A DNA stretch of 64,000 nucleotides from Kiritimatiellia bacterium (lineage in GTDB: Bacteria; Verrucomicrobiota; Kiritimatiellia; RFP12; UBA1067): positions 23,968-87,967 of the forward strand of contig JAFTCL010000029.1 in the NCBI GenBank assembly GCA_017454745.1, in the 5' to 3' direction. Numbering within the stretch: position 1 is the first letter of the stretch; every line of letters starts with the position of its first letter. The notes under the pieces were generated by a model. It was not told the DNA's origin, searched no databases, and saw nothing but the letters and a program-made list of their open reading frames with translations. Positions 36,990-51,685 of the stretch are shown piece by piece. A program made the position numbers and the translations under genes.

Positions 36990-38084
36990 ATGAATCAAAC
37001 GCAGCTTATTTTAGTCGGCGGATTTCTTGGCGCGGGTAAGACCACGCTGATCGAGCGCGTGGCGCGGCGGTTGGCGGAACAGGGAAAGCGCATCGGGTTG
37101 ATCACCAATGACCAGGCGACCGGACTTGTCGACAGCCAGTTGCTCCGGCAGGGGGCTTGGACGGTGGCCGAGGTCGCCGGAAGTTGTTTCTGCTGTAATT
37201 TCAACGGTTTCATCGACGCGGTAAAGAAAGTGGGGGGTGAGAATCGGGCGGATGTCATCTTGGCGGAACCGGTGGGCAGCTGCGCCGATCTTTCGGCGAC
37301 GATTCTCCAGCCGCTGAAACAGTATTGGAAGAGTGAGGTGCGGGTGTCACCTTTTACGGTGTTGGCCGATCCCGCGCGGCTTGCGGCGATCCTGAAGGGT
37401 GAAAACGGCGGACTGCACGAGGACGCGGCATATATTTATCGTAAACAGCTGGAGGAGAGCGACCTTATTCTCATCACGAAAATCGACACCCTTACGCCCG
37501 AGGCATTGGAAAACCTGAAGGCGGTGACCGTTGCGGCCTTTCCGGCGAGCCGGGTAATGGCCGTCAGCGCGCTTCAGAATGTGGGGATTGACGCTTGGTT
37601 GGACGATCTCGCGGAACATACCGATGCGGGAACGCGGCTACTGATGATTGATTACGACCGTTACGCGCACGGCGAGGCGGTCCTGGGATGGTTGAACGGC
37701 GCCATCCGTCTGCAGGGCGCGGAATGCGATGGAAACGCGTTGCTGGCCGAGCTGATGAACGCGCTTCAGGACCGCATTGCGGCGGGGAATTTCCGTGTCG
37801 GCCATGTGAAGGCGATTGTCGAAAACGGCGTTCAGTATGCAGTCGGGAATATCACGGGAACCATCGGGGCGCTCACCTTCCGCGGGGATGCAGGGACGGG
37901 TGACGACCTGCGCTTGACGATCAACGCCCGGGTAGAGTGTTCGCCCGAACGGCTCGACGAGTTGGTTCGCAGTGCGCTGGACGCGGCCATCGCCGACAAG
38001 CACGCTTTCGATATCCTCGAATGGCGTTATCTGCAACCCGGACGCCCCAATCCCACTTACCGTTTCGATCAGGTCGTGGGTTGA
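36990..38084 (+). CDS. COG0523 (CobW/ZigA/YeiR-like) G3E-family P-loop GTPase, a putative metallochaperone.
   Basis: Walker A LVGGFLGAGKTTL. Metal-binding GSCFCC (GCxCC) motif. LITKID G4-like motif. Confidence 0.8.
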   Translation: MNQTQLILVGGFLGAGKTTLIERVARRLAEQGKRIGLITNDQATGLVDSQLLRQGAWTVAEVAGSCFCCNFNGFIDAVKKVGGENRADVILAEPVGSCADLSATILQPLKQYWKSEVRVSPFTVLADPARLAAILKGENGGLHEDAAYIYRKQLEESDLILITKIDTLTPEALENLKAVTVAAFPASRVMAVSALQNVGIDAWLDDLAEHTDAGTRLLMIDYDRYAHGEAVLGWLNGAIRLQGAECDGNALLAELMNALQDRIAAGNFRVGHVKAIVENGVQYAVGNITGTIGALTFRGDAGTGDDLRLTINARVECSPERLDELVRSALDAAIADKHAFDILEWRYLQPGRPNPTYRFDQVVG

Positions 38085-38136
38085 AAAGTGCCAAGAACGA
38101 GGCATATATGCCGCATAAATAGGAGGACTAGACACA

Positions 38137-39023
38137 TGAACACCAGCCGCCGTGGCTTCTGCGGACTCGGCCTTGCCGCTTCCGCCTACTTTGCAACACG
38201 TAGCGATCTTCTGGCCGAAGTCGCCAAGTGCCGTTCCGAATACAACGGCATTAAGGTCGGGTGCATCACCTATTCGTATCGCTCGTATGCGCCGGCGATT
38301 ACGCCGCAGGACATCATCCGCTACGCGACCGAGAGCGGACTCGGCACGCTGGAGCTGAAGGGCGAGACCATAGAGCCCTTCGTCGGAAAAGGCAAGGACT
38401 TCAGTCCCGCGAAGCTCAAGGAGCTGAGGCGGATGTTCGACGACGCGGGCATCGCTATCCACATTTGCAAGATGGGCGGTCCTGACGGCTACCGCGCGGA
38501 AATCGCACACGGGCTTGGCGCAACGTGCATCACGGGGGAGGTCCCGGATCCGACGAAGCCAGACGAACAGAAGCGCGTCGGCGAGCGCCTTGCGAAGGCG
38601 TGCGAGAAGTATGACCACTACTTCGCCTTCCACAACCACACCCAGATCGACGCGCTCACCTACGACGGCGAATGGTTTAAGGCGTCTGACCGCCTGAAGA
38701 TCAACTTCGACATTGGACACTACGTCGCGGCGATGACCGACGACGCGAAGCGCTTCATCTCGCCGCTTGATTTCGTGGAGAAGTACCACGACAGGGTATT
38801 CTCGATCCACCTCAAGGACAGGACGACCAAGGCGCATGGCGCGAAGAACCTGCCGTTCGGCACGGGCGACACCCCGCTCAAGGAGCTGTTCCCGTTTCTG
38901 CAGAAGAAGGGTTACCGTCCCTACTGTGACATCGAACTAGAATACCGCGTCCCGAAGGACTCCACCGCCGCCCGCGAGGTGGGGATATGCAACGCGTACT
39001 GCCGCGCCGCATGCGGATGCTAG
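38137..39023 (+). CDS. Sugar phosphate isomerase/epimerase (xylose-isomerase-like TIM barrel) with a Tat signal peptide.
   Basis: MNTSRRGFCGLGLAASAYFA twin-arginine motif. TIM-barrel AP-endonuclease-2-like segments (FAFHNH, IHLKD, DIELE). Confidence 0.65.
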
Positions 39024-39127
39024 TCTGTTCGCATTCCATTTTAGCTCTTGGATTTGTTCGAGGTTAACGCCGCTCACATCGCGAGTGGCGTGGTCACAGC
39101 CGTTTGTCCATTCCCTCCGGAAACGGG

Positions 39128-42100
39128 TCACTTCACGGATTCGACGGCACCGAACCGGATGGTTACCGGGCCGATCAAACCGGAATCGATTAACGGGTCG
39201 CCTTTGATCCAGTGCTTCCAGGTTGAGAACGCGCGCCGATGCGTGGGCGACTGACTGCCATGTTTCGACCACTCCGGCAACTGTTTAATCCGGTATTTAT
39301 CACTGTTCGCGAATATCCATTCGCAGTCGTCGGGGTGCAATATCTCGTCGCCTAGGAAGCGGTTGGGCCAGAGATTGGTCACTTCCACCTCCAGATCGAA
39401 CGATTCAGCCCCTGGTTCAATCGCATCAGTGACATCAACGGCGAACGGCGGTTTCCAGAGCGTTTTGATGGCTTTGCCGTTTATCTTGACTACCGCGAAA
39501 TCCCTCACCTCGCCCAAATCCACCGCGATGCGCATTTTTACCGCGTTTCCTGGCAAGGTAATCCGTTTGGAATATGCCGCCGTGCCGGAGTAGAATTTGA
39601 TGCTGGCGTCGGTATGGCGGTTCCATCGGACAAGCTGCGGGAATTCGGTCGATTCCGGCGCGCCGCGCCCGCTGACGAATTTTACCTTCCATGGCCCGGA
39701 GACCTCCATCGGCGGGAGTGTCGCGATTTCTTTATGCAACGTTTTACCGTTGCTGTATTCGCAATCGGCATTGACCGGGTTCCATGCCACGAGTGCGCCG
39801 TTTTTCCATTCCCAATCCGGCGCGTAATCGTCCGCCGCGGTATCGGGCAACCGCAATACCATGTGTTCCATGAAATCTTCCGTGCGTTGAACACCGTTCA
39901 CTGCATAGGTGAGACGCAAAAACTTCACATCTAAAAGGGCGGGATCATCGCCGAACAGTTCGTTGCGCACGGCAAACTCAAGTCGTCCGTTTTTGATCAG
40001 ACCCCTCACGGTTTCGGTTACCTCCTTGGCACCCGCGGCGAAATCCGCACCCTCTGACCCGCCGGCGGATTTTTTGTATGCGCCGTAAACGGCTTTGATC
40101 ACCTCAACCCGTGCGGCGGACCGGTTAAGGTTGAGATTGATCCGTGTCGATTCGGGGAAATCTTCCGTATGGGTTTCGCCGTCGATTTTATAAGTTACGC
40201 GGCAAGTCTTGACTTTCCCGTACGCGGGATCGCCTTTAAAGGTCTCGTTGCCCGATGTTAAGGAGATTTTTCCTCGGTGCATTGCGTCGCGTAGAATCTT
40301 GGTAACATCCGCTGCCCCCGGCAGGAAAACTTTGTTTTCAAGGGCTCCGTAACGGGCTTCGATGATGCTGCCAGTGATTCGGGTAGCAGAGGCCGGTTCG
40401 TCCTTTGTCTTAACTGTTGCGCGGGTTAGGTGTGCCGTCCCAGTCTCGGTCCGACGGAAAACGACAAAAGTTGATCCTTTCGGCGGCAGATCGATGCTGA
40501 CAACGGTTCGACCGTTCTCGATGCGCCACACCGCCGCGTCGGTGCGCTCGCCGGTCTCGGCGTTCCACAGTTCCGGCACGCGACCGTTCTGCCGGAACGA
40601 CGCTTCAAATCGCAGCGGGTCTGCATTGCCCGCCGAAACGAAATAGATGTCGGCGTCAGCGCTGGCCCGGTGAATCCACGCCACCGGCGCGCCCAGCGAC
40701 TGATGGTCGAAGTCTGGCGTTAGCCCGATTTGTTTTAGCGCGTTGGCGGTCGTTCCGGAAATAACACCTTTTGCCCAGATCCGGTCGGCCAGCGCGGCAA
40801 CTTTCGTGTCAGCTTCCGGCCAACCGACCAAACCGGAATGGCGGTTGGGTTTTCTAATCGCGCAGACCTTCGCCCCTTGGTCGATCAATTCGCCAATGCG
40901 GATTAGCGCCGCCTCGCTCATGGTGGCGGTGTTCGGCAGTGCCAGCAGCGCGTACTCCGTTCCTCCGGGTACCGCCACCTTCCCGTTTTTGACGGTAAGG
41001 CGCATCAGGGCGCGGGTGGAGGCGATGTCCCAGTCGTAACCGGACGGCACGCCTACGCCCCACCACGAATTTTCATTCGGCACCTGCTCGCCGGTCCACT
41101 GCAGGACATCCGCTTGGAAGACACCCTGCTGCAACATCCATTGGCAACGCGCCTGGTAGGTTAGCCAAGTATCGACATGCCGCCACCAGGTTTGTTTGCG
41201 GTCAAAGTGCATTCCCCAACGGCCCATCGTCATGCCGGGCGCGAAATCGTCTCCCGGCCAAGGTTGGTGGGTGAAGCGGTGGTAGATGATGCGGTTTATG
41301 CCTTGGGCGAAGGCTTGGTCGCCGAGCCATTTGATTTTCCACGGGGTTTCGAGCCAGCGGCTGTGGTCTGGAAACGGGCTGCCGGTGAACGATTCGGTGC
41401 CGGCGTATTTGCGTCCCCAGACGTGCGCCAGACTGGCGGCGAGCTTGGCGTTGCCGGGATCTCCCATGTGGCTCCAGAACTCGCCCATCGGGATGTCCAC
41501 CGCCTCGCCGTAATCGAGATCGTCGCAGGTGCAGTTGCCGTAAGGCTCTATGGAAAGCTGAAGCCCGTGCCGGTGGCACAGCTCCGCCATCCGCCCGGAG
41601 TAGTTCTTCGCGAACAGTTCGCCGATAAGCCGGCGGAAGTCCTCCAGAAAACGTTCGCTCTCCTCGACCGATCCAACCACGCGGCCCGCGAAAACCGGCA
41701 GGTACTTCAGCAGCGAGTAGCCGAAACGGCGTTCGAACGCCTGGTCGAAACCTTGCGTCCAGTTTTGGCACTGCACCTCGTAGCTGTCCACCAGAATGTT
41801 GTTGAAACCGAGCGCGTTGTCGGTCGCAGAAGAAACGCCGAGATCGCGGCAGAGCCGCGAAACGTACTGCTCGAAATGGAAATCCAACGCCGGGGCGGAG
41901 AGCTTGTCCACCTCCAGACCGCGTCCGAAATCCGAGGCCGGGCCGTTGCACTGACCATTGCAGCGGTAGCCGATGCGCAGGATCGTCCACTCTCCGGCGG
42001 GTACGTTCCAGTTCAGCGAACCGTCCTTACGCATGGACTTGGTGAGGTCAATCTCTTTGGCCGCATCGACCAGTTGGTCGGCGGGATATGTCTTTTTTGA

Positions 42101-42703
42101 GGTGGGGTCGAAGAAATTTTGGTCGCGGTTGTGCATGAGACCGGCGATCTGGCGCCAGCGGAAGATTTTCTTTTCGAGGTTTTCGAGTTTCGCTCCCGCT
42201 TTGGGCGTGGGGTAGGCCAACACCGCAATGTCCTCGTAGAAGCCGTGGTCATCCTTGGTCCGCGGCAGTTTGCCGTCAAACACGGACGGCCCCTTAACCG
42301 CAGTTTCGGTGAAAACCACGTTTTTCATGGCATTTTCCGGTTTGTTCCACGGTCCGCCGTAACTTGACCAGCCGGAGCAGTTCGGGATACATATTTCAAG
42401 TCCGAGCCGTTTGGCCTCTTTCTGGGCGTGGCGGAAGAGGTCGAACCACTCGTCGGAGTTGAATTTGACCGGTCCGGGCGGCACGTTGCACCCGGCATCA
42501 AACATCTGCACGCCACCGATGCCGGCCTTGGCCAGCGCCTCGAAGTCGGCGGTGATGCCGGCCTTGGTGACGTTGCCGTTCATCATGTGGTACCAAGTGT
42601 GCGGTTTCGCCTCGTGCGGCGGGGTCGAAAATCCCTCTTCAAGCGTTTGCGCCGTTGCGCCGGCAGCCACCAATACCAATGTCATGGCAATCATTTTGTT
42701 CAT
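39128..42703 (-). CDS. Large secreted glycoside hydrolase, probably GH106-like alpha-L-rhamnosidase, with a C-terminal galactose-binding-like domain.
   Basis: Signal peptide MNKMIAMTLVLVAAGATAQT. N-terminal PHTWYHMMNGNVTKAGITADFEALAKAGIGGVQMFD block reminiscent of Glyco_hydro_106. C-terminal sugar-binding-like domain. The family assignment is tentative. Confidence 0.45.
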   Translation of the reverse strand: MNKMIAMTLVLVAAGATAQTLEEGFSTPPHEAKPHTWYHMMNGNVTKAGITADFEALAKAGIGGVQMFDAGCNVPPGPVKFNSDEWFDLFRHAQKEAKRLGLEICIPNCSGWSSYGGPWNKPENAMKNVVFTETAVKGPSVFDGKLPRTKDDHGFYEDIAVLAYPTPKAGAKLENLEKKIFRWRQIAGLMHNRDQNFFDPTSKKTYPADQLVDAAKEIDLTKSMRKDGSLNWNVPAGEWTILRIGYRCNGQCNGPASDFGRGLEVDKLSAPALDFHFEQYVSRLCRDLGVSSATDNALGFNNILVDSYEVQCQNWTQGFDQAFERRFGYSLLKYLPVFAGRVVGSVEESERFLEDFRRLIGELFAKNYSGRMAELCHRHGLQLSIEPYGNCTCDDLDYGEAVDIPMGEFWSHMGDPGNAKLAASLAHVWGRKYAGTESFTGSPFPDHSRWLETPWKIKWLGDQAFAQGINRIIYHRFTHQPWPGDDFAPGMTMGRWGMHFDRKQTWWRHVDTWLTYQARCQWMLQQGVFQADVLQWTGEQVPNENSWWGVGVPSGYDWDIASTRALMRLTVKNGKVAVPGGTEYALLALPNTATMSEAALIRIGELIDQGAKVCAIRKPNRHSGLVGWPEADTKVAALADRIWAKGVISGTTANALKQIGLTPDFDHQSLGAPVAWIHRASADADIYFVSAGNADPLRFEASFRQNGRVPELWNAETGERTDAAVWRIENGRTVVSIDLPPKGSTFVVFRRTETGTAHLTRATVKTKDEPASATRITGSIIEARYGALENKVFLPGAADVTKILRDAMHRGKISLTSGNETFKGDPAYGKVKTCRVTYKIDGETHTEDFPESTRINLNLNRSAARVEVIKAVYGAYKKSAGGSEGADFAAGAKEVTETVRGLIKNGRLEFAVRNELFGDDPALLDVKFLRLTYAVNGVQRTEDFMEHMVLRLPDTAADDYAPDWEWKNGALVAWNPVNADCEYSNGKTLHKEIATLPPMEVSGPWKVKFVSGRGAPESTEFPQLVRWNRHTDASIKFYSGTAAYSKRITLPGNAVKMRIAVDLGEVRDFAVVKINGKAIKTLWKPPFAVDVTDAIEPGAESFDLEVEVTNLWPNRFLGDEILHPDDCEWIFANSDKYRIKQLPEWSKHGSQSPTHRRAFSTWKHWIKGDPLIDSGLIGPVTIRFGAVESVK

Positions 42704-42739
42704 GGTAACAAATCCTTTTTTTACACAGTAGACAATTAC

Positions 42740-44179
42740 TCAGTACGATCCAAGTAGTTTCGCAAACGGAATTATTGCGTCGAAATACCCGTCGGCCTCC
42801 ACAATCGGGGCGAGATGCCCTTCATACACGAGTGCGGTGCGCACGGAGATACCGGCGCGGCGAGGAAGCCGTTTCGTTTTCTCCACCATTTCATCGATCA
42901 CTTCGCGTCCAATATCCCTGCGGCGCTTAATCTCGACAATACACATCGATCTTCTAGTCTGTATGAGCAGGTCGATCTGCACACCACTCTTGGAACCGTC
43001 ACGTGATGCCGCGCGTCTGTAAGGTGCGGCGGAGATAATCTGCGCATTGCCCATCCCAAGCATACTTACGAGGCCGCCGAGGTTCGCCAGCACTAAGTTC
43101 TCAAACTGAAGACCCATTGTGGAATCCCAGCCGTCGAGACTGTCGAGCGAACCGAAGGCGAAAGCATTGCGGTCGATGACGTCTTTCACCGGTTCAATGT
43201 ACTTGAGGTAGAACCGCGAGTAGTTGTCGTTAAGCCTGTAGCGCGACTCCCTGACATTCCTTCCGCTCTGCGGATTCACGCCGCCGTCGTTGACGACAAG
43301 CCCGCACTCTGCAAGTTGCTCTAGAGAATCGGAAATGCGCCCGCCTCGTTCCATCCCAATTTCTCGGGCGATTTCGCTTACGCTACGCGGTGCACCCTTG
43401 AGGCATCGGAGAACAGATGCCGTAAACTGCGGTTGCCGCGTTACGACATCCGAGAACATTTCATCGAAATCCTCCCGTAGCGGACTCTTTGGGAGGAAAC
43501 ACAGCCTTCGAATGTTCTCATTCGCCGATTCGGACGTATCAATCTCCTCAAGGTAGCGGGGAATTCCGCCCGTCACTGAAAGCACGTCGATAATTTCTCT
43601 AGGATCAAGCCTTGCCGCAGCCTTTCCCCAGAACTTTGCACATTCGCACACGGGAAGTTCGGGAACCACGATGTCGAGCGAACGCCTGCCGTAGAAACTC
43701 CCGTCCTCAAGTATGTTGTCCCTTATCCATGACGAAACACTTCCGCATAACACGAACACGAGCCTTGGATGCTTCTTGAAATGGTCATCCCATACTCCCT
43801 TCAGCGTACCGGCGAACAAGGGATCGTAATGCGCCATCCACGATATTTCGTCGAGAAGGACAACCGTCTTTTCGTTGTCGCGGATCTGCCCGTTCAGTCG
43901 AAGGAATGCGTTGAGCCAGTTGTTCGGAACGGAGGAGTCGCATCTGGTCTGGGCGGCAAGCTTCACCGCAAAGTTCTCAAGCTCCATGCTATTGTTTAAC
44001 TTCGCTCTAGGTTTTATCCCCTCGATCTTGATGAATCGTGCACCTGCTCTTTCGGCAAATTTCTCGATCAGGGTCGATTTGCCCACCCTTCGCCTTCCTC
44101 TGCAGGTGACGAACGAGGAAGTCCTCTTCCTAAAAAGGGAATCCAACCGTCCAATGAGTTCTTCGCGTCCAAAAAACAT
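42740..44179 (-). CDS. AAA-family ATP-binding protein of the DUF234/archaeal-ATPase type.
   Basis: FFGREELIGRLDS...VTCRGRRRVGKSTLIEKF Walker A. Walker B VVLLDEISW. C-terminal DUF234-like region. Local GC about 50% against about 62% in the flanks. Confidence 0.7.
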   Translation of the reverse strand: MFFGREELIGRLDSLFRKRTSSFVTCRGRRRVGKSTLIEKFAERAGARFIKIEGIKPRAKLNNSMELENFAVKLAAQTRCDSSVPNNWLNAFLRLNGQIRDNEKTVVLLDEISWMAHYDPLFAGTLKGVWDDHFKKHPRLVFVLCGSVSSWIRDNILEDGSFYGRRSLDIVVPELPVCECAKFWGKAAARLDPREIIDVLSVTGGIPRYLEEIDTSESANENIRRLCFLPKSPLREDFDEMFSDVVTRQPQFTASVLRCLKGAPRSVSEIAREIGMERGGRISDSLEQLAECGLVVNDGGVNPQSGRNVRESRYRLNDNYSRFYLKYIEPVKDVIDRNAFAFGSLDSLDGWDSTMGLQFENLVLANLGGLVSMLGMGNAQIISAAPYRRAASRDGSKSGVQIDLLIQTRRSMCIVEIKRRRDIGREVIDEMVEKTKRLPRRAGISVRTALVYEGHLAPIVEADGYFDAIIPFAKLLGSY

Positions 44180-44249
44180 TTCAAAACCTCATAAGTGATT
44201 CTTGGTTGAAAAATTTATCATAATCTTTCCGATTCTGTCAATAACACTT

Positions 44250-44339
44250 TGTCACATTATTTAATTTTTCTCAATAATGTGACAAAAATTACACTGCAAA
44301 AATCTGTCACATTATTGAGTTATACCTAATAATGTGACA
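44250..44339. promoter_or_regulatory. Two copies of a 12-bp inverted repeat with an 11-bp spacer (operator-like) in the AT-rich region upstream of the ATPase gene.
   Basis: TGTCACATTATT (44250-44261), 11 nt, AATAATGTGACA (44273-44284). Then TGTCACATTATT (44305-44316), 11 nt, AATAATGTGACA (44328-44339). Arms are perfect and identical in both copies. Confidence 0.6.
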
Positions 44340-44975
44340 TTTCTGATCTTACCCCGCCCACGATCGTTTACGGGAAGGTCCGTTTGTCCGTTCGCGTCAA
44401 GCAAGCCGAGAGGCGCCATTTCTGTGATACATCCCTCGCATATGCGCTCATAAAGCTCATTTCGGAGCCTGCACCCCAAAGGCGGCGGACGGGAGATCGG
44501 GTGTTTGAGTGCGAGTCACCATCGGGGAATGCAGTTTGGCGAACTTTCCTCTTGATGGAGGTTACTGGAATATGGTATATTTTAATTACCGTAATTGAGG
44601 GGAGTCTCAATCGCGGATGCTCTTTAACTTCGGTGGGTGCAGCAGATGGCCCACCACCGGGCCGAAACCTGTGTCGCGACGGTGTTTCGCTGTAGCGAAT
44701 AGGCCAAGGCCAAGAACCTCGGTTAACTTGCAATTGTAGAACGGACGGCTTGCCAGTTTCCGAATAGATTGTGATATGCCGGGGAGCCAGTGATCCCAAA
44801 AGGGCTCTGGAATCTTCTCCTTTGCTACGCAAGTGGCTAAGGAGGTAACGTACGCAACTGCGTAAAGTAACTTCGTAGAAAAGACCGCTAATCTTACGAT
44901 GGGGTGAAATACGGTGGTGCGTCGCGTGATGTTCACGCGGCGTGCTTTCCTATTCATGTTCCATCAAAGGCTTTT

Positions 44976-45029
44976 AGCGGCGCCTTCTACGAGACTTGAA
45001 TTTCGAGAGTGCGCCGCTCTTCTTTTTTT
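44976..45029 (+). terminator. Rho-independent terminator on the + strand.
   Basis: AGCGGCGC stem, loop, GCGCCGCT, followed by CTTCTTTTTTT. Confidence 0.65.
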
Positions 45030-45034
45030 GCTGA

Positions 45035-45067
45035 GGACACATTCTCAACACTGACGGAATTGTGTCC
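45035..45067. promoter_or_regulatory. 7-bp inverted repeat GGACACA-N19-TGTGTCC between the terminator and the first secreted-protein gene.
   Basis: Read directly from the sequence. About 50 nt upstream of the ATG at 45117; RBS-like AAGGGA at -12. Confidence 0.3.
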
Positions 45068-45116
45068 CCTACTTTTCCTGATGTGAACAAAACGCAAGGG
45101 GAAAGGGATTAAATAG

Positions 45117-46193
45117 ATGAGAAGGTTGTTGATCATGGCACTTGTTGTTGCATGTGCTGTTGGATACGCCATAGGTGCCGATGGCGAGGAGGACGCTCCT
45201 TCGGGAACGCAGAAGGTGATGCTTAAGATTGCGACCGTGGAAACGCCAGATACCCGTACCGCGAAGACATGGAATCCACCGGCCACACCGATGACCCTTC
45301 AGGAGCTACCACATACCGAGGCGGATATCGCCAATGCAACGCCGGAGGAAGCTAGGCAGATGGCAAAGGAGAACCGCGTCAAAAAACTGGCTAACCAGGG
45401 GATTCAGGCCGCCATCGCAACGGATGCCTATTTGAAGGCCCAACAGCACTTCGAGGGTGTAAGGAAAAAACTTGAGGGAACCGTGTTTGGCAAGCAGGTA
45501 ATTCTCGCTGTCGATAAGTTTGCCGGAATAGCCGGTGAATGTTTCGATCCTGATTGCATTGAGTTCTTCCACCGTATGGACAATGACGAGGGCGACAAGG
45601 AGCAGTTCTTACAGGATATGAAGAGTACGGATACGCTTTGCGCACCGTATTTCATAAAGCTCATCTTCGACAATCCTCGCCATGAATCTGGAAAAGTCGT
45701 TATGAACGGGCAGGAGATTAAGCGCTCGAAGACAACCATCACCATCACATATCAGGTACAGGCGCTTAATGGCCGTATGATCACGTCAGGCATGGTGAAG
45801 GAAGAGAAAATGACCAAGACATCCAATGCCGTACAGCGGTCAGGAACAGATGAAGGTGTTCTCATAGACACTATTGAGGAAGCGCTTCGAAAAGTGGCCA
45901 AGCGCATCAATGATCATTTCGTCGCGAAAGTTACGATTAAGGCCGTTTCGGCTGGCGGCAAGAAGGATGAGGATTTCGATGCCGAAGCCGCAACCGTTGA
46001 GCTTGACGGTGAATCTGCGGAGATTGACACCGAGATATCCATCATGAAAGGCAAGCACACCATCGTTATCGATCTTGATGAGTACAAGCAAAGAGGGTCC
46101 ACGTCTTTCAATATCAGAAAGTCTGGTCCGATCAAGATTGTTCTCAAAAAGAAGGAAGCTCCGCCGAAGAAGGAAGCCAAGGATGACGAGTAA
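45117..46193 (+). CDS. Secreted hypothetical protein (island gene A), distantly CsgG/LpoB-like.
   Basis: Signal peptide MRRLLIMALVVACAVGYAIGA. No known catalytic motif. GC about 50%. Confidence 0.55.
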   Translation: MRRLLIMALVVACAVGYAIGADGEEDAPSGTQKVMLKIATVETPDTRTAKTWNPPATPMTLQELPHTEADIANATPEEARQMAKENRVKKLANQGIQAAIATDAYLKAQQHFEGVRKKLEGTVFGKQVILAVDKFAGIAGECFDPDCIEFFHRMDNDEGDKEQFLQDMKSTDTLCAPYFIKLIFDNPRHESGKVVMNGQEIKRSKTTITITYQVQALNGRMITSGMVKEEKMTKTSNAVQRSGTDEGVLIDTIEEALRKVAKRINDHFVAKVTIKAVSAGGKKDEDFDAEAATVELDGESAEIDTEISIMKGKHTIVIDLDEYKQRGSTSFNIRKSGPIKIVLKKKEAPPKKEAKDDE

Positions 46194-46230
46194 TGTGTTT
46201 GTAAACTTCACACACCAGAAAGGATTGATC

Positions 46231-47217
46231 ATGAATAAGAGTATGTTTGCAGCAGTTGTCGTAGTCGCGTTGTCGTTTACGGGTTGTGTTTCGTACAAAG
46301 GTATCGCCGAGAAGGGAGACGATTTAGTGGATGAGGCCAACCAGCCTTATGCCAGCGCGGCGCAAACGGCATTTGAGGCGCGTGTGAAAGCGCCGCCGCG
46401 TCCGGTAGTAATCAATGAGGCTCCAGGTTTGAACCAGTTTCTTGCACCGACGGCTGCCGGGCATCCGCTTTGCCGGAATCTTGACGTTCGGAAGGAACTT
46501 GTATTGGCATTCAAGGGGCAACTTCGCGAAAAAGTCGCTGGAATCAAGGATTTCAAGCTTCTTGATGAGAATACGCCCATGGTGGAGGTCGTGGCCGAAG
46601 GAGATGCCGCTCCGCCCCAGAACTACTTGATGACTTACAACATCATCAGCATCGAATTGCGCGAAAACGCGGGAGGCAGTCTTGCTACTGGACTTGCAGG
46701 CGGAAAAGTTGCTGCCCAGAAATTCTGGGACGCGATTGCGAAGGTCGAGGTTCGCCTGTTCAAGCCAAACGGCACCGACTGTATTTTCTCATTTACTGGT
46801 GACGGCCTCTACAGAAAGATGGTTGACGAGAATAATCCATTGACGAAAGATTTGCTTCTTGGAGCAGTAAAAGATGCCGTCGATAAAGCGATGGCCGGGT
46901 ACGCGGAAAAGTTTGGCCCGCCAATCTTTGTTACTGACACCTGCCAGAACGGCCGGTTTGCCCGTCTTTCTGTTGGGTCAAAGTTCGGTGTTCAGGCTGC
47001 GCAGAAAGTGGAGTTCTTTTTCAATAAGGTGCGCAAGGGCGTGTCTGGCGAGGACGAGGTGGCTCGTCAGGTCGTGGGGTCTGGAGTTATCGGCGGAGGT
47101 AAGGCTCCTGTCGAGGATGACGGTGCTTGGGTGAAGGTTGATGACTATAATGCGGATAAGCGTACGGTACTCCGTTGGACATCCGCTCGAATCCTGCCTG
47201 TTGAGAAGAAGAAGTGA
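46231..47217 (+). CDS. Lipoprotein with a CsgG/LpoB-like fold (island gene B).
   Basis: Lipobox ALSFTGC. CsgG-family-like pattern LDVRKELVLAFKGQLREKVAGIKDFKLLDEN and NYLMTYNIISIELRE. RBS AGGA 8 nt upstream. Confidence 0.55.
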   Translation: MNKSMFAAVVVVALSFTGCVSYKGIAEKGDDLVDEANQPYASAAQTAFEARVKAPPRPVVINEAPGLNQFLAPTAAGHPLCRNLDVRKELVLAFKGQLREKVAGIKDFKLLDENTPMVEVVAEGDAAPPQNYLMTYNIISIELRENAGGSLATGLAGGKVAAQKFWDAIAKVEVRLFKPNGTDCIFSFTGDGLYRKMVDENNPLTKDLLLGAVKDAVDKAMAGYAEKFGPPIFVTDTCQNGRFARLSVGSKFGVQAAQKVEFFFNKVRKGVSGEDEVARQVVGSGVIGGGKAPVEDDGAWVKVDDYNADKRTVLRWTSARILPVEKKK

Positions 47218-47225
47218 GGTGCATT

Positions 47226-48173
47226 ATGAAGGTATTCAAATTAATGTTGTGTGTCGCCGCAGTTTCGGCGATGATTTTGCCTGTCCGGGCTGACGATGAC
47301 GAAGAGGGCGAAGATACGCGCCCATATGTCTCGATAAACAAGGAGGATGTTGTCAACAAAACTGACAACAAAACCGCCAATTTCAGGGCGCTGATAGATC
47401 GACTGAACAACGATCTCGTTGAGACGGGCCTTTATCGCGTCATGAGTATGGAGGATGCCATCAAGGCTGTCAAGAAAGCCGATCAGATGAGTGTTGTCGG
47501 GGATGATGGAGGCGGTGGAACGAAAATAACGACACCCGCGTTTTTCGTTGGCATGACTATTACGACATACGGCGTGACTACCGCGCGCAGTCAGAACGCG
47601 CTCACAAATGTGAAAATCGGTACGGAAGTTGCCAAGGTCGAGCTGATTCTCAAGGTTGTGGACGCTCGTTCTGCGGAAACGATCAAGTCAAAGAATATCG
47701 ATGCTTCGGCCTTTGGGCAACTTACCGGTGCGGCGGGCAATCTGCGCGAGCAGGTGCTCCAGAGTGCTGCAAAGAAGGCCTGCGAGAAGATTGTGTACGA
47801 ACTTATCAAGCTTACGCCGTTTGGCATCCTTGATGTTGAGAATGGAGTTGTAACGCTTGATGTACCCGGTTCGCTTAAGATTATGGGCAAACCGGTACAG
47901 ACAGGGACACAATTCGTTGTGTCGAAATTAGGAAAGGGTAAGAAGAGTAGGCGAACCGGCAAGGTGACACGCTCCGAAACGCAAGTTGCCGTGGTGAGCG
48001 TCACGTCTGTAGGAGAGGATTCATGCACGGCCAAGATCGTCAACGGTAAGATTGAGCCTATCGGAGATGATGAGGATACGCAGTATGATCCATACATCGT
48101 AAAAATCAATGAGGGTGCTGCCGGCACGCCTCCGCCGCCTCCGCCACCAGAAGATAACGGTGCGCCGTTCTAA
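47226..48173 (+). CDS. Secreted CsgG/LpoB-like protein with a poly-Pro C-terminal tail (island gene C).
   Basis: Signal peptide MKVFKLMLCVAAVSAMILPVRA. CsgG-like FRALIDRLNNDLVETGLYRVMSMEDAIKAVKK and KITTPAFFVGMTITTYGV. C-terminal PPPPPPPE. RBS GAGGTG. Confidence 0.55.
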   Translation: MKVFKLMLCVAAVSAMILPVRADDDEEGEDTRPYVSINKEDVVNKTDNKTANFRALIDRLNNDLVETGLYRVMSMEDAIKAVKKADQMSVVGDDGGGGTKITTPAFFVGMTITTYGVTTARSQNALTNVKIGTEVAKVELILKVVDARSAETIKSKNIDASAFGQLTGAAGNLREQVLQSAAKKACEKIVYELIKLTPFGILDVENGVVTLDVPGSLKIMGKPVQTGTQFVVSKLGKGKKSRRTGKVTRSETQVAVVSVTSVGEDSCTAKIVNGKIEPIGDDEDTQYDPYIVKINEGAAGTPPPPPPPEDNGAPF

Positions 48174-48203
48174 TGACGGATTCCGGACTGTTTGGAATCG
48201 GAC

Positions 48204-48232
48204 GGAGCTTCACCATTTGCCGGTGAAGCTCC
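48204..48232 (+). other. Perfect 11-bp stem hairpin between island genes C and D.
   Basis: GGAGCTTCACC, loop atttgcc, GGTGAAGCTCC. No T-run follows, so a classical terminator is uncertain. Confidence 0.35.
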
Positions 48233-48259
48233 GTTACTAGAAAGATGGAGAACTAATAT

Positions 48260-49045
48260 ATGAGAAGTGTGTGCTTTGTTTTCGCGGTGTTCGCGACCTT
48301 TTTAGTGGCTGTAGCCGAAACGCCGCTTGTTTCGGTCAATGTGATTGTTGCCACCAATACGGTGGGTGATGCCGATGCTGCGGCAAAGGCTGTGGCCGAA
48401 GTCGCAGAACGGACCGCACGGGCTGATGCGGCTCGGAAAAGAAGTTCCGTTGTGGTCAGTCAGTTGATTGCGGATATGAAACCTGTTCCGGGGCGGGTTT
48501 ACCTTCTCGGGCGTACGGAGGTCACTGCGGAGCAGTGGCATTCCGTCATGAAACCGGACGTTCCGTTTGTCGGCAAGGCTGATCTTCCGGTTTCTGGCGT
48601 AAGCTGGGACGATTGCCAGGATTTCATCAAGCGACTAAATGAACGTAGTGAGACAAGCGCTGAAGGATTGTCTTTCCGCCTTCCGACGGTCAAGGAATGG
48701 CGGCATGCGTGTCTGGCTGGCGCAAAGGGCAAATGGGGGCTTGTAACCGCAAAAACCGTGGGACAACTTGATTCCGTGGGATGGTATGCGGGAAACAGCG
48801 GAAGTCGAAAATCAGCCATCGCGCAGAAGACGCCTAATGTCTGGGGTTTCTATGATATGCACGGAAATGTTTTTGAATGGTGTTCCGATACGAGTCCGGA
48901 ATACGGCGGAGATTTCCGAATGCGAGTCGGTGGAAGTTTCAGATCACCATCCGAACAATGTGCGGCATCGTTTGCGAATAGTGCGAATAGGCAGTTTTCG
49001 CGATATGATGACCAGGGGGTTCGACTTATTTGTGAACGGCATTAA
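48260..49045 (+). CDS. Secreted formylglycine-generating-enzyme (SUMF1/FGE, DUF323) family protein (island gene D).
   Basis: Signal peptide. FGE hallmarks VSGVSWDDCQDF, LPTVKEWRHACLAG, NVWGFYDMHGNVFEWCSD and RVGGSF. Confidence 0.7.
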   Translation: MRSVCFVFAVFATFLVAVAETPLVSVNVIVATNTVGDADAAAKAVAEVAERTARADAARKRSSVVVSQLIADMKPVPGRVYLLGRTEVTAEQWHSVMKPDVPFVGKADLPVSGVSWDDCQDFIKRLNERSETSAEGLSFRLPTVKEWRHACLAGAKGKWGLVTAKTVGQLDSVGWYAGNSGSRKSAIAQKTPNVWGFYDMHGNVFEWCSDTSPEYGGDFRMRVGGSFRSPSEQCAASFANSANRQFSRYDDQGVRLICERH

Positions 49046-49084
49046 TTTTATGGAAGAGCCGCCAGCAAATTTCCAGTGCAACGC

Positions 49085-51685
49085 TCACTGCACTAGCCGA
49101 AGTTCGGCGAATTCCACTTCGGCACCGATTTCGCTTCCCGGATCGATACGGATCGAGTCAATCCGTCCGCGCCATGCCTTGTGCCCGGAGACCGGGAAAC
49201 GGTAGTCGTGCCATTTGCCGTCGGCTATGATTTCGCGGTGCATGGACGACTTTTCTGAGATTGGACCCGCGCTGCCACCCCAAAAGAGCTGAAGCGTCCC
49301 GGCGGCGTCGCGCGTACGCATCCGTACAATGACAGTGCCGAATTCCTTCGCCCGGATGCGTTGGGCCGAGACGGATACTGCAGGGTCGCGGCTGGTGGTG
49401 GAATAGGCGACACCCTCGCCGGTGGACCGTGCGCTGGAAAGGCCCATAAACGCATTCCAACCTTTCGGTTCGCCGTCCTTGCAGCTCCATGAGGTCTTCT
49501 TCTCTTGTGGCGGAGGTGGCGGGATGTCGTATGGCCCGAGGCCGACATCTTTCGGACCGTAGTTCTGCGGCCAGCCGGCGGCGGGTTTTTCACAGAAGGT
49601 TTCGCGCACCGCCTCGTAGAATCCGAAGCCGTGTTCGGAGTTCGGCTCGGCGTAGGATCCTTCGCCCCATTCGTTGAGCGGGGCGATGCAGAGGCGTTTT
49701 ACGCCAGTCTCGTCGGCGAACCGCTTTGCGGCCTGGCAGATGCTTCGGAAGTCGGCGGCGTTCTTGCCGTAGATTTCGCAGTGGTCGTTCCATGGGCGGT
49801 CGTCCCAGCCGGTGGATAGGTTGGGGAGGTACGGCAGGATGCCGGTCCGTTCAAGCGCGCGCCAATTTTCGACATTCGCTTCCGCAACCTGCGAGTAGGG
49901 GAATCTGCGGTACGTATTGGAGCGTCCGCCGTGGTCCATGAAATGGTAGATGCTCGTCATGTCGAAACCCAAATCGCGGATTCTGCTTACGACCTCCGGC
50001 GTGCAGACCGCCTCTGGCCACTTCATCGAGATGAACCAGATGCCCCTGAATCCGGCTGCGCGCGCCATCTCGCGCGAGACTTCGAGCAGCCGCCGGCATC
50101 CTCCGTTACCCGCCATGTCGCGTTCTATGTTCTCCGGCGACCATATCCACACCACGGGCATACCGTCAATCTGCAGGTATTCGGGCGTGTTGAAGTAGTT
50201 CTCGATCCAGAACTTGGTTACCGCGCGCTGGTCTGCCTCGGAGTGGGTGCCTGGGGCGTTGTGGTTAGCCCACATCATGGCCCATTTCATGCGGTTACGG
50301 TACTTCGCGCGGTAGAACGCCTTCACCCAATGGTCAAGGTGCTGGCTGCCGGCACTCCAGTACCAGTCCACATAGAGCGTACAGATGCCGTTTTCGACGA
50401 GCCACTTGATCTGCCAATCGACGATTTCGGGGTTTGCCTCGTCGTACCATCCCAAGACCGGCTTACGCTCCGGACAGGTGTTGCGCACGCGCTCCCAGCT
50501 TCTATAGGTGTTCCAGCCGGGGAAGTAGAGGGCGGCGATGTCGTATGTCGTGCGAACGGGCTTCGGTTCCGGCACGTAGCTTGCTTTTACGAGATCGAGT
50601 GATGGGGCGGCTTTTAGAACGACCTTTGTCGTGACGGGTGCAATGCCATCGGCCTTCAGTTCGACGGGAATCTCGTAGTTGCCGGGACGTACCGCCCGGA
50701 TCTCAACGGAGAATGTGGCTGTTTCGCCGTCCGCCACTGTGCGCGCCGCGCTGCGTCCGCCGCCGCTGATGCCGTCGGGTAATGCGGGGACGGATATTGA
50801 GGCGTTTTCGGCGGGCGCACCGCCGAGGTTCTCCACCACCAGCTCCACGGGTATAGGCTGCCCGGTGCGCGGAATAGCCTCGGCAGCTCGCGCGCTTTTT
50901 ACAATGAGGTCGGCGGGAATGTCACCGTCGTCACTGAACGTGCGGAAGTCTTTCGTTTCGAGCGGTTCGCCGGTTCGCGAATTCGTGAACTCCCACCATA
51001 CGATATTAACGTCTCTTCCGTTTTCGCCGGCCATATCGAGGGATATGGTGTGGGCGCGTCCGTCGCCGGGTACGGAGAACTTTCGGAAATGGCTGCCCGG
51101 AGCGTTGTCCGCGGCCCAGGCGAAGAGACCGGTCGCAGGAGTGTCGCCGTCAACGACGAATCTTACGCCCAGCGCGTTGGAAAGGGAGATGGGCTTCTGT
51201 GTAACTGCGGTTTCCACGCGCACTTCCGAGAGGGCGCATTCGCCGGCGTTGGCGGCGTTCGCCGGGAAATCGATGCGGACACAGCGGATGTCGCCTTCGC
51301 CATGCCAGAAGGGCCTCACGCGGTATTCGTGCCATTCTCCGTCGCCGATCCACTTGAAAGCCGCGCTGTGTTTTTGGTCCGGGCCTTTCATCTTGGTCGT
51401 TGTCCAGAAGATCTCGCCTTTGCCTTCCACGGGTGATTTGGCGCGGAACACGAGTTCTTGGGCGGGGGAGGCTGCGAAGGGTTTAACGTTGCCGCTGAAG
51501 AAGGAGTCGGGGCCGGCCGGTTTGCCGGTCAGGACTCCGTCTGCGAGCGCCGTTTCGCGCATCTGGTTCGCGCCGTGTTGCCAGGCATCGAGGTCGTTAC
51601 CACGCCAAACGGGTCCGCTGGCGGGTTCATCCGCTGCGATCGCAACGGTAACCGCCAGTGCAATAGCCGCAATCGTTTTAATCAT
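49085..51685 (-). CDS. Secreted glycoside hydrolase (GH99-like/WbsX-like catalytic domain) with N- and C-terminal beta-sandwich domains.
   Basis: Signal peptide MIKTIAAIALAVTVAIA. Central region with GWYDEANPEIVDWQIKW and PLNEWGEGSY (clan GH-A-like NEW motif). The family call is tentative. Confidence 0.45.
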   Translation of the reverse strand: MIKTIAAIALAVTVAIAADEPASGPVWRGNDLDAWQHGANQMRETALADGVLTGKPAGPDSFFSGNVKPFAASPAQELVFRAKSPVEGKGEIFWTTTKMKGPDQKHSAAFKWIGDGEWHEYRVRPFWHGEGDIRCVRIDFPANAANAGECALSEVRVETAVTQKPISLSNALGVRFVVDGDTPATGLFAWAADNAPGSHFRKFSVPGDGRAHTISLDMAGENGRDVNIVWWEFTNSRTGEPLETKDFRTFSDDGDIPADLIVKSARAAEAIPRTGQPIPVELVVENLGGAPAENASISVPALPDGISGGGRSAARTVADGETATFSVEIRAVRPGNYEIPVELKADGIAPVTTKVVLKAAPSLDLVKASYVPEPKPVRTTYDIAALYFPGWNTYRSWERVRNTCPERKPVLGWYDEANPEIVDWQIKWLVENGICTLYVDWYWSAGSQHLDHWVKAFYRAKYRNRMKWAMMWANHNAPGTHSEADQRAVTKFWIENYFNTPEYLQIDGMPVVWIWSPENIERDMAGNGGCRRLLEVSREMARAAGFRGIWFISMKWPEAVCTPEVVSRIRDLGFDMTSIYHFMDHGGRSNTYRRFPYSQVAEANVENWRALERTGILPYLPNLSTGWDDRPWNDHCEIYGKNAADFRSICQAAKRFADETGVKRLCIAPLNEWGEGSYAEPNSEHGFGFYEAVRETFCEKPAAGWPQNYGPKDVGLGPYDIPPPPPQEKKTSWSCKDGEPKGWNAFMGLSSARSTGEGVAYSTTSRDPAVSVSAQRIRAKEFGTVIVRMRTRDAAGTLQLFWGGSAGPISEKSSMHREIIADGKWHDYRFPVSGHKAWRGRIDSIRIDPGSEIGAEVEFAELRLVQ

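Follow-up and report, generated by a model that had tools for sequence, protein, structure and literature searches.

Paired palindromes upstream of PDC-S27-type ATPase genes: a candidate autoregulatory operator pair with a conserved layout and diversified arm sequences

The C proteins of restriction–modification systems are small, separately encoded helix-turn-helix (HTH) proteins of the Xre type; their two operators (C-boxes) abut within ~35 bp, overlap the -35 element and lie beside a methyltransferase–endonuclease gene pair. Another mode of control is found among P-loop NTPases such as MalT, the LAL/AfsR-like STAND regulators and DnaA, for which nucleotide-dependent oligomerisation leads to cooperative binding at several promoter-proximal sites; DnaA also regulates its own gene. 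Here we focus on a locus of a Kiritimatiellia bacterium (a stretch of 64,000 nt from contig JAFTCL010000029.1, called the window below), in which two identical palindromes lie upstream of a single gene encoding an ATPase with a winged helix and a PD-(D/E)xK-like domain. The layout of the two sites is kept among relatives of this gene, and the sequence of their arms has diversified. We propose, with a probability of roughly 0.68, that the palindromes are the operators of a one-gene cassette, bound by the winged helix of the gene's own product and autoregulatory.

The cassette appears to resemble a C-protein/C-box circuit, or an autoregulated initiator of the DnaA/Orc type, and is a member of neither. 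It would share with the C-box systems the autogenous control of a potentially toxic nuclease locus, two adjacent palindromic operators with a dimer on each, operators that move with a mobile gene set, and many mutually exclusive specificity classes; but here the winged helix lies inside a 479-aa ATPase-nuclease, the sites are 55 bp apart and, in this clade, they are upstream of the -35 element. No small HTH gene or methyltransferase gene is found among the neighbouring open reading frames (ORFs) examined (36990-49045), and the immediate neighbours of the ATPase gene are a GH106 rhamnosidase gene and genes without a significant Pfam match. With archaeal Orc1/Cdc6 proteins and their origin recognition boxes, the common features are an AAA+ NTPase with a helical lid and a C-terminal winged helix (Foldseek matches 2qby, 1w5s and 1fnn), and dyad-symmetric sites in an AT-rich intergenic region beside the protein's own gene; the differences are a bacterial host, an extra nuclease-like domain, no indication of an unwinding element or a replication function, and sites that are promoter-phased and diversify in sequence between paralogues. 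MalT, the other STAND regulators and DnaA differ in that their DNA binding is of the LuxR, SARP or DnaA domain IV type (neither a LuxR nor a SARP domain is detected by Pfam in the 479-aa protein), in that they control other operons or the origin, and in having no nuclease domain. The WYL regulators BrxR and CapW, and RptR, are similar in having inverted-repeat operators upstream of defence genes and in forming regulator–operator pairs that move with the system; unlike the present case they are separate genes, and no separate regulator co-travels here. What we propose as new is an autoregulatory operator pair that is built into a one-polypeptide ATPase/winged-helix/nuclease cassette and has diversified in specificity.

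The protein encoded by this gene matches the profile of PDC-S27, a single-gene candidate for phage defence in which, by the published description, an ATPase and a PD-(D/E)xK domain are joined (PMC12988326). PDC-S27 is among the commonest candidate defence systems of archaea and rumen genomes (PMC12988326, PMC13356809), and one survey lists 2,865 copies of PDC-S27 / 'archaeal ATPase' in 6,530 rumen genomes and metagenome-assembled genomes (MAGs) (PMC13356809). One cold-seep PDC-S27 representative in E. coli B was not among the protective ones against T4, T5 and T7 (PMC12881386). No mention of operators, a DNA-binding winged helix or autoregulation for PDC-S27, PF01637, COG1672 or DUF234 was found in the literature searched, in which journal coverage is incomplete.

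The two palindromes were noticed in a first-pass annotation, made by a model from the sequence alone, as two identical 12-bp inverted repeats with 11-bp spacers, 55 bp apart; when re-read in the sequence, the coordinates, arms and spacing proved exact, and the pair is confirmed as real. Each site reads TGTCACATTATT-N11-AATAATGTGACA, without a mismatch in any of the four arms and with a spacer of 11 nt in either copy, and the centres of the two arms of one palindrome are 23 bp apart; the proximal site can be extended to arms of 14 bp (TTTGTCACATTATT / AATAATGTGACAAA). The pair occupies the region 71-160 nt upstream of the ATG (44179) of the ATPase gene, which is on the minus strand, and this region has a G+C content of 26%, against ~55% in the surroundings. 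In 100 dinucleotide-preserving shuffles of the window there are 0 matches to the palindrome pattern even at 3 mismatches, so none is expected by chance. The 64-kb window itself contains no further copy of the full pattern (up to 3 mismatches), no single arm (at most 1 mismatch) outside these four positions, and no other occurrence of the skeleton TGTCAC-N23-GTGACA.

The sites are confined to the ATPase gene and move with it. We scanned one genome per species (185,579 species) for the exact pattern, and found it in 8 loci, in rumen or gut MAGs labelled Kiritimatiellae, Lentisphaerae or Verrucomicrobia, with one motif-bearing locus per genome. All of these (8/8) are directly upstream of an orthologue of the ATPase gene (83-100% identical), whose start is ~70 nt past the nearer palindrome. 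A dispersed repeat, e.g. a miniature inverted-repeat transposable element or a repetitive extragenic palindrome (REP) of the kind found in bacterial interspersed mosaic elements, is accordingly rejected: the window has two copies, both at this place, and the case in which the motif is a common REP-like repeat without positional bias relative to genes, which had been named in advance as the refutation of an operator pair, is ruled out because the motif is rare and always directly upstream of an ATPase orthologue. Orthologues at 80-91% identity (from metagenome contigs) are found in unrelated neighbourhoods, e.g. next to AraC/HipA, PfkB/GFO_IDH or ETF-QO/Exo_endo_phos genes, whereas the neighbour in the window is the GH106 rhamnosidase gene; both palindromes are kept in all of them. 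Alignment of 11 upstream regions shows that the similarity begins a few nt before the distal palindrome, that the arms are invariant, and that the 11-nt spacers and the 20-nt linker are free to vary; after the sites come TTGAC(A/C), an 18-nt spacer, TGnTA(A/G/T)AAT, a GAGG ribosome-binding site and ATG. At the downstream end of the cassette there is no conserved terminator or repeat, and the next gene follows on either strand at a variable distance.

The layout of the sites persists at much lower protein identity, and their sequence does not. We collected 80 further loci at 51-84% identity from metagenomes, plus 3 more from look-ups, and searched them for symmetric sites; a confident palindrome pair is present in 59 non-redundant loci, covering 51-100% identity. 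The start-to-start register of the two sites is 55 bp in 40 of these loci, 54 in 13, 56 in five and 53 in one. An operator pair for a dimeric binder, as the annotation had suggested, is thus supported by arms that are under selection, spacers and a linker that drift, and a 54-56 bp register in 58 of the 59 loci. The arms, on the other hand, fall into many classes: among 64 loci there are 26 distinct outer 9-mers (e.g. TGTCACATT, TGTCCCCTA, CGTCACCTA, GTGCACCTA, CCTCACCTA and TATCCCAAA), with a family consensus arm of nnTCACCTAWWT in which C4 and C6 are nearly invariant. The TGTCACATT class of the window is limited to relatives at 80% identity or more, and locus L015 (protein P0072), for example, has arms of the TGTCCCCTAAAT class instead of TGTCACATTATT. 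Within a locus the four half-sites are nearly alike, the two sites agreeing at 17 or more of 24 positions (mostly 20-24); the arm sequence diversifies with the protein. Tandem paralogues have different arms: TTTCACCTATTC versus TTCTCCCCTATT in L058 (1514-4813), and TAATCCCCTATT versus CCTCACCTAAA in L073 (1060-4431).

Some loci deviate from the paired arrangement. In each of the two tandem pairs (L058 and L073), one gene has a single palindrome rather than two. Solo palindromes of the family type, with no second ATPase gene after them, are found just 3' of an ATPase gene in L094 (~1745-1785, TTTCCCCTAAAC-N11-GATTAGGGGAAA; the operator of this ATPase gene is of another class) and in L056 (~2215-2260, TGGCACGAAAAT-N9-ATTTTCGTGCCA). 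These may be remnants of lost cassettes or extra targets.

The distance to the promoter is kept as well. A predicted sigma70-type promoter (TTGAC-N17/18-TGnTAnAAT) follows the proximal site in 55 out of 55 loci, and in all but one of these the distance between the centre of that site and the first base of the -35 hexamer is 23-27 nt (54/55). Judged from these elements, transcription in the window would start near 44205, which would place the centres of the sites at about -62 and -117. Two other promoter candidates were rejected: one within the palindromes (TTGTCA-18-AATAAT, 10/12) is limited to this arm class and is missing from the family consensus arm, and one within the linker has no -10 element with A at the second position, so the conserved downstream promoter is preferred. 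GTGACA, the outer hexamer of the right arm, has a look-alike in the -35 hexamer TTGACA, which has the orientation of the arm and lies 8 nt downstream of it. This likeness is probably a coincidence, since it is restricted to this arm class, but the -35 hexamer could also be a weak third half-site for the ATPase on its promoter.

The first-pass annotation had noted that no obvious HTH regulator is encoded nearby. This does not hold for the ATPase itself, whose residues 255-298 show profile matches to HTH_5, HTH_20, IclR and MarR (and also TrmB when the segment is searched in isolation). The score for HTH_5 (ArsR/SmtB-type) is 25.0 bits for the isolated segment and exactly 22.0 for the whole protein, with a cut-off of 22; the fold is similar to that of the ArsR/SmtB metalloregulators, but for that family (NF033788) the score is 16.5 bits against a cut-off of 55, i.e. 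the protein is not a member. An AlphaFold2 model (pLDDT 86) consists of a P-loop NTPase, a helical lid, a three-helix-plus-wing unit (helices 249-257, 266-273 and 279-290, strands 294-296 and 313-315) and a C-terminal alpha/beta domain. Foldseek matches of the model include Apaf-1, archaeal Orc1/Cdc6 (among them the DNA-bound 2qby), PABY2304 (2qen, a PF01637 member), plant NLRs and Avs3; the matches to Orc1/Cdc6 (2qby_A, 1w5s and 1fnn) have a probability of 1.00, with an identity of just 15-16% and TM of 0.3-0.4. At the family level, the protein is assigned to ATPase_2 (PF01637; COG1672) with 42.7 bits against a cut-off of 33.2 (residues 2-213 on positions 1-225 of the 225-position profile), and to PADLOC PDC-S27 (PDLC04984) with E = 1.1e-73 and 246.8 bits (residues 2-419 on positions 4-412 of 474). 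The Walker A (GRRRVGKST) and Walker B (LLDE) motifs are invariant among 27 homologues, and so are D402 and E415-x-K417. The C-terminal segment alone gives weak, sub-threshold profile matches to Hjc (E = 0.007) and UPF0102. This C-terminal domain has no DUF234 match (PF03008), either in the whole protein at E <= 0.01 or with residues 319-479 alone at E <= 10. The winged-helix block is the most variable part of the family, with a mean pairwise difference of 0.52 versus 0.37 elsewhere.

Table 1. Coordinates of the palindromes, the predicted promoter and the ATPase gene in the window
Feature	Position	Strand	Description
Proximal palindrome	44250..44284	no strand	TGTCACATTATT-TAATTTTTCTC-AATAATGTGACA; centre ~62 nt upstream of the predicted transcription start; edge 8 bp from the -35 hexamer
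Distal palindrome	44305..44339	no strand	TGTCACATTATT-GAGTTATACCT-AATAATGTGACA; centre ~117 nt upstream of the predicted start; position kept in 11 orthologous loci, spacer free
Linker	44285..44304	no strand	20 bp; length conserved (start-to-start 55 bp), sequence free
-35 hexamer, predicted	44236..44241	-	TTGACA; TTGAC kept in the family (T 55/55, T 51, G 54, A 36, C 39)
Extended -10, predicted	44212..44220	-	TGA-TAAATT, 18-nt spacer after the -35; family TAnAAT, extended TG in 43/55 loci
Shine-Dalgarno	44187..44190	-	GAGG, 7 nt before the ATG; kept in aligned orthologous upstream regions
ATPase / winged-helix / PD-(D/E)xK-like gene	42740..44179	-	479 aa; PADLOC PDC-S27, Pfam PF01637; proposed binder of the palindromes
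Winged helix-turn-helix coding region	43235..43435	-	residues ~249-315; predicted recognition helix 279-290
C-terminal alpha/beta domain coding region	42743..43162	-	PD-(D/E)xK-like motif D402, E415, K417

The two-site layout recurs well beyond the clade of the window, in several relatives at 24-40% identity. Homologues at 39-40% identity in IMG/VR contigs (L109-L114) and on a Desulfosarcina plasmid (L115) have two palindromes 54-55 bp apart. In L109-L114 these are two GGAGAC-N24-GTCTCC sites, of which the distal right arm contains a -35-like TTTACG and the proximal right arm includes the start codon, and the linker between them contains TATAA(C/T); in L115 the site is TTTTGTGTC-N21-GACACAAAA, with a second site 55 nt on and TTGACA in the distal right arm. 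At ~25-26% identity, a Malaciobacter plasmid (L117) has two (G/A)TGAAAT-N22-ATTTCAT sites ~51 bp apart, and Wolbachia phage WO (L120, MN180249.1, 10906-13216; the gene is annotated as 'archaeal ATPase fused to C-terminal DUF234') carries a pair of 37-nt units at a distance of 56 bp, with TATAAT within the spacer, TTGATC-N17 before it, and the second unit ending 4 nt before the start codon. Core promoter elements (-35, -10 or start) are therefore overlapped by the sites in three remote clades (L109-L114, L115 and L120). At ~25% identity, the Butyrivibrio plasmid pNP243 (L116) carries TTTTGGCGGAATATA-N14-TATATTCCGCCAAAA. One clear palindrome only is seen on the Emticicia plasmid pEMTOL01 (L118, ~25% identity), from another phylum, which has the same TTGGCGGAAT arms as L116, and on a haloarchaeal plasmid (L119, ~25%). 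The arms that L116 and L118 have in common (TTGGCGGAAT...ATTCCGCCAA) lie ~90 nt upstream of the ATPase genes in both, which suggests horizontal transfer of the gene plus its site.

In the proposed mechanism, the cassette would consist of a palindrome, 20 bp, a second palindrome, a near-consensus sigma70-type promoter and the ATPase/winged-helix/nuclease gene. The two winged helices of a dimer would bind the two 12-bp arms of one palindrome, with about two helical turns between the centres, and two such dimers, 55 bp apart (~5.2 helical turns, i.e. roughly on one face of the DNA), would bind cooperatively, probably by ATP-dependent assembly of the ORC/STAND-like NTPase domains; the bound assembly would then set the transcription level of the ATPase's own gene. 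The steps we infer are three: binding by this protein's own winged helix, cooperative binding of dimers, and an effect of the binding on transcription. The ATPase is chosen mainly by parsimony, because it is the only gene that co-migrates with the sites, and a private trans-acting reader seems to be needed because there are at least 26 site classes and the hosts come from several phyla. Certain types of the predicted recognition helix are found with certain site classes: ERGGRIS with TGTCACATT, KGGD with (C/T)CTCACCTA, KGGK(I/L) with GT(T/G)CACCTA, RSGNIT with TGTCACGAA, RNGRV with TGTAGCGAA and ERSGSIS with CTACACGAA. As for the direction of control, we lean towards negative autoregulation rather than activation, because the promoter is near-consensus and presumably needs no activator, because the corresponding sites of the three remote clades overlap a core element (-35, -10 or start), and because the product is a putative nuclease.

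Several observations weigh against this proposal. The direction of control is its weakest step, as positions of about -62 and -117 are classical for class I activators, and simple occlusion would not explain repression because the sites of this clade are wholly upstream of the -35 element; activation and repression by an extended assembly would both be compatible with this arrangement. The assignment to this particular winged helix rests on parsimony, and the co-variation of winged helix and half-site is weak beyond ancestry (partial Mantel r = 0.12; 45 out of 2000 permutations gave a value at least as high as that observed). Among the 30 residues best associated with the half-site, eight are in the winged-helix block versus 4.6 expected; a residue-by-base recognition code based on mutual information was therefore rejected as swamped by phylogeny. 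Individual loci also disagree with a simple code: L023 and L026 have identical winged-helix segments with different outer arms (TGTCTCC vs TTTCCCC), and L033 has a near-identical site (TGGCACATTATT) but a different recognition helix. About one-third of the loci at 51-60% identity gave one clear palindrome or none in the symmetric-site search. Finally, in STAND proteins and many proteins of the ORC type, the corresponding winged helix has a structural role without DNA binding.

Other readings of the sites were considered. The protein's own winged helix may bind the sites, but as a docking or assembly platform that holds the ATPase-nuclease inactive or nucleates an oligomer, until a trigger (e.g. 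phage infection) releases or activates it; archaeal Orc1/Cdc6 likewise occupies origin boxes next to its own gene. The fold is similar to that of origin-DNA-bound Orc1/Cdc6 and of STAND immune ATPases (Avs3, NLRs); a register held strictly at 54-56 bp points to several subunits in a defined assembly; no variation is seen at the nuclease-like residues D402, E415 and K417; and the sites of the window's clade are upstream of the core promoter and not on it. We consider such a platform unlikely, however: a fixed distance to the -35 element and overlap with the promoter in remote clades are expected of a transcriptional role, docking needs no tie to a promoter, and one locus per genome could hold few molecules only. 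Alternatively, the binder could be a separate host regulator (a global one, or a repressor of the BrxR/CapW/RptR type from a defence island) with the ATPase as merely its target. Repressors of defence genes that bind inverted repeats are well known, e.g. RptR (PMC12255303), and the statistical tie between site class and winged helix is weak once phylogeny is removed. But no regulator gene travels with the cassette, and its neighbours differ in every context; such a regulator would have to be present in Kiritimatiellae, a Desulfosarcina plasmid, Campylobacterota and a Wolbachia phage, with at least 26 specificities changing in step, and neither the window nor the scanned species genomes have the motif at another promoter, all of which makes a separate regulator hardly probable. 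A site of the CRP/FNR type in particular was rejected: although TGTGA and TCACA do occur, neither their order nor their spacing is right for such a site, and diversification in parallel with the cassette is not expected of a global regulator.

The compact cassette is found in unrelated neighbourhoods of closely related genomes, and the palindromes could accordingly be the sites at which a one-gene mobile element recombines, transposes or homes, its nuclease and ATPase cutting or pairing them to move the cassette. Recent exchange is suggested by the closest species genome, UBA1200, in which the cassette plus a 134-nt flank is 99.8% identical and the other flank 92%; many contigs of the family are short, as repeated or variable DNA would give, and there are the isolated palindromes without a gene in L094 and L056. 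Yet both sites are at one end of the gene, and no matching terminal repeats, target duplications or precise junctions are seen. The limits of homology vary by pair (a few nt, ~40 nt or 134 nt upstream; 0 to ~40 nt downstream), which suits ordinary recombination better than site-specific movement; the species-genome scan finds a single copy per genome, and the fixed promoter phasing would be left unexplained. We give little credence to a role of the sites in mobility, and the recombinase or partition sites that the annotation had also offered find no backing in the family, where no such gene co-travels, the sites are at one end only and homology limits differ from pair to pair. That the palindromes act as RNA stem-loops (terminator, attenuator or processing signal) or as DNA cruciforms, instead of protein sites, is very improbable. 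Both arms do change together across the family and keep 12-bp stems, which would be expected of a conserved hairpin too. However, no T-run follows the sites and the terminator scan did not report them; the palindromes would be outside the ATPase mRNA because they are upstream of the predicted promoter; G:T pairs among mismatches of imperfect arms are at the level of chance (33/188 vs ~17% expected); and a constraint on structure only would keep neither the two stems of a locus identical nor the 54-56 bp register. Rfam 15 gives 0 matches at the gathering score in the whole window, a permissive search over 44150-45150 gives sub-threshold microRNA-like hairpin hits only, over the palindromes, which merely reflect the hairpin shape, and no tRNA or tmRNA genes are found; an RNA element was rejected on the Rfam result and the lack of G:T enrichment.

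On the other side of the palindromes, ~690-780 nt separate them from the next gene (44340-45116), with no convincing ORF. ORFs of 116, 154 and 103 aa in this stretch have no Pfam match; the stretch belongs to no Rfam family, and comparison with the fetched loci and with plasmids gave no homologue or match. It folds somewhat better than shuffled sequences (z = -3.3 on the plus strand and -2.7 on the minus strand) and has a terminator-like G+C hairpin followed by a T-run at 45005-45030 on the plus strand. Possible identities of the stretch are an undescribed RNA, a gene in decay and debris of an insertion. The annotation had placed the sites upstream of a plus-strand locus ending near 45029, but in other genomes the palindromes go with the ATPase gene and this stretch is not beside them. 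The sites are detached from it because they accompany the ATPase gene into unrelated neighbourhoods, and control of 44340-45116 by the palindromes was rejected, as the stretch is largely absent from UBA1200 and never occurs with the palindromes in other genomes. UBA1200 (L014, DBXY01000052.1, 7480-7514) is without a 4.6-kb segment (44474-49094) at this place, which comprises most of the noncoding stretch and a four-gene operon ending in a gene with an FGE-sulfatase domain; there, the ATPase cassette and its 134-nt flank abut the 3' end of a WbsX-like gene. Going by these comparisons, the region is a variable spot in which the cassette has probably been exchanged recently.

The operon of the window (45117-49045, plus strand) encodes proteins of 358, 380 and 319 aa without significant Pfam domains, followed by a 261-aa protein with the FGE-sulfatase domain. 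The order of the three unassigned genes is kept in L100, L102 and L104, and in L100 and L102, but not in L104, the FGE-sulfatase-domain gene comes next; PEGA domains are present in some remote homologues of the first gene (358 aa). In another Kiritimatiellae contig (L102/L103, 1-4683), three AAA_14/DUF4143 ATPases (PDC-S01-like) and a RelB antitoxin are encoded upstream of the orthologous operon, and a further PF01637 ATPase downstream; the spot collects orphan ATPase genes in several genomes.

A broader idea, which is speculative and which we think unlikely, is that the whole PF01637/PDC-S27 superfamily, of which there are thousands of copies in archaea, rumen bacteria, plasmids and also Wolbachia phage WO, consists of sequence-specific, self-recognising ATPase-nucleases, each locked to a private pair of sites next to the gene that encodes it; the palindromes would then serve as an 'address' for a one-gene element of a new kind, selfish or defensive, and not as a simple operator. 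If so, sites and readers may have diversified rapidly because cassettes compete with or exclude one another, as C proteins do, or because the nuclease moves or homes in a site-directed way.

The first-pass annotation left the cognate binder of the palindromes as a question, and the answer likely lies in the adjacent ATPase gene. The two-site layout, together with sites that diversify upstream of PDC-S27 genes, implies that these proteins bind DNA sequence-specifically and sense or control the locus that encodes them, and such binding constrains any model of PDC-S27 function. The family is also a natural set of at least 26 apparently orthogonal operator–reader pairs that share one geometry, and this set could serve work on the recognition code of winged helices and provide parts for synthetic regulation.

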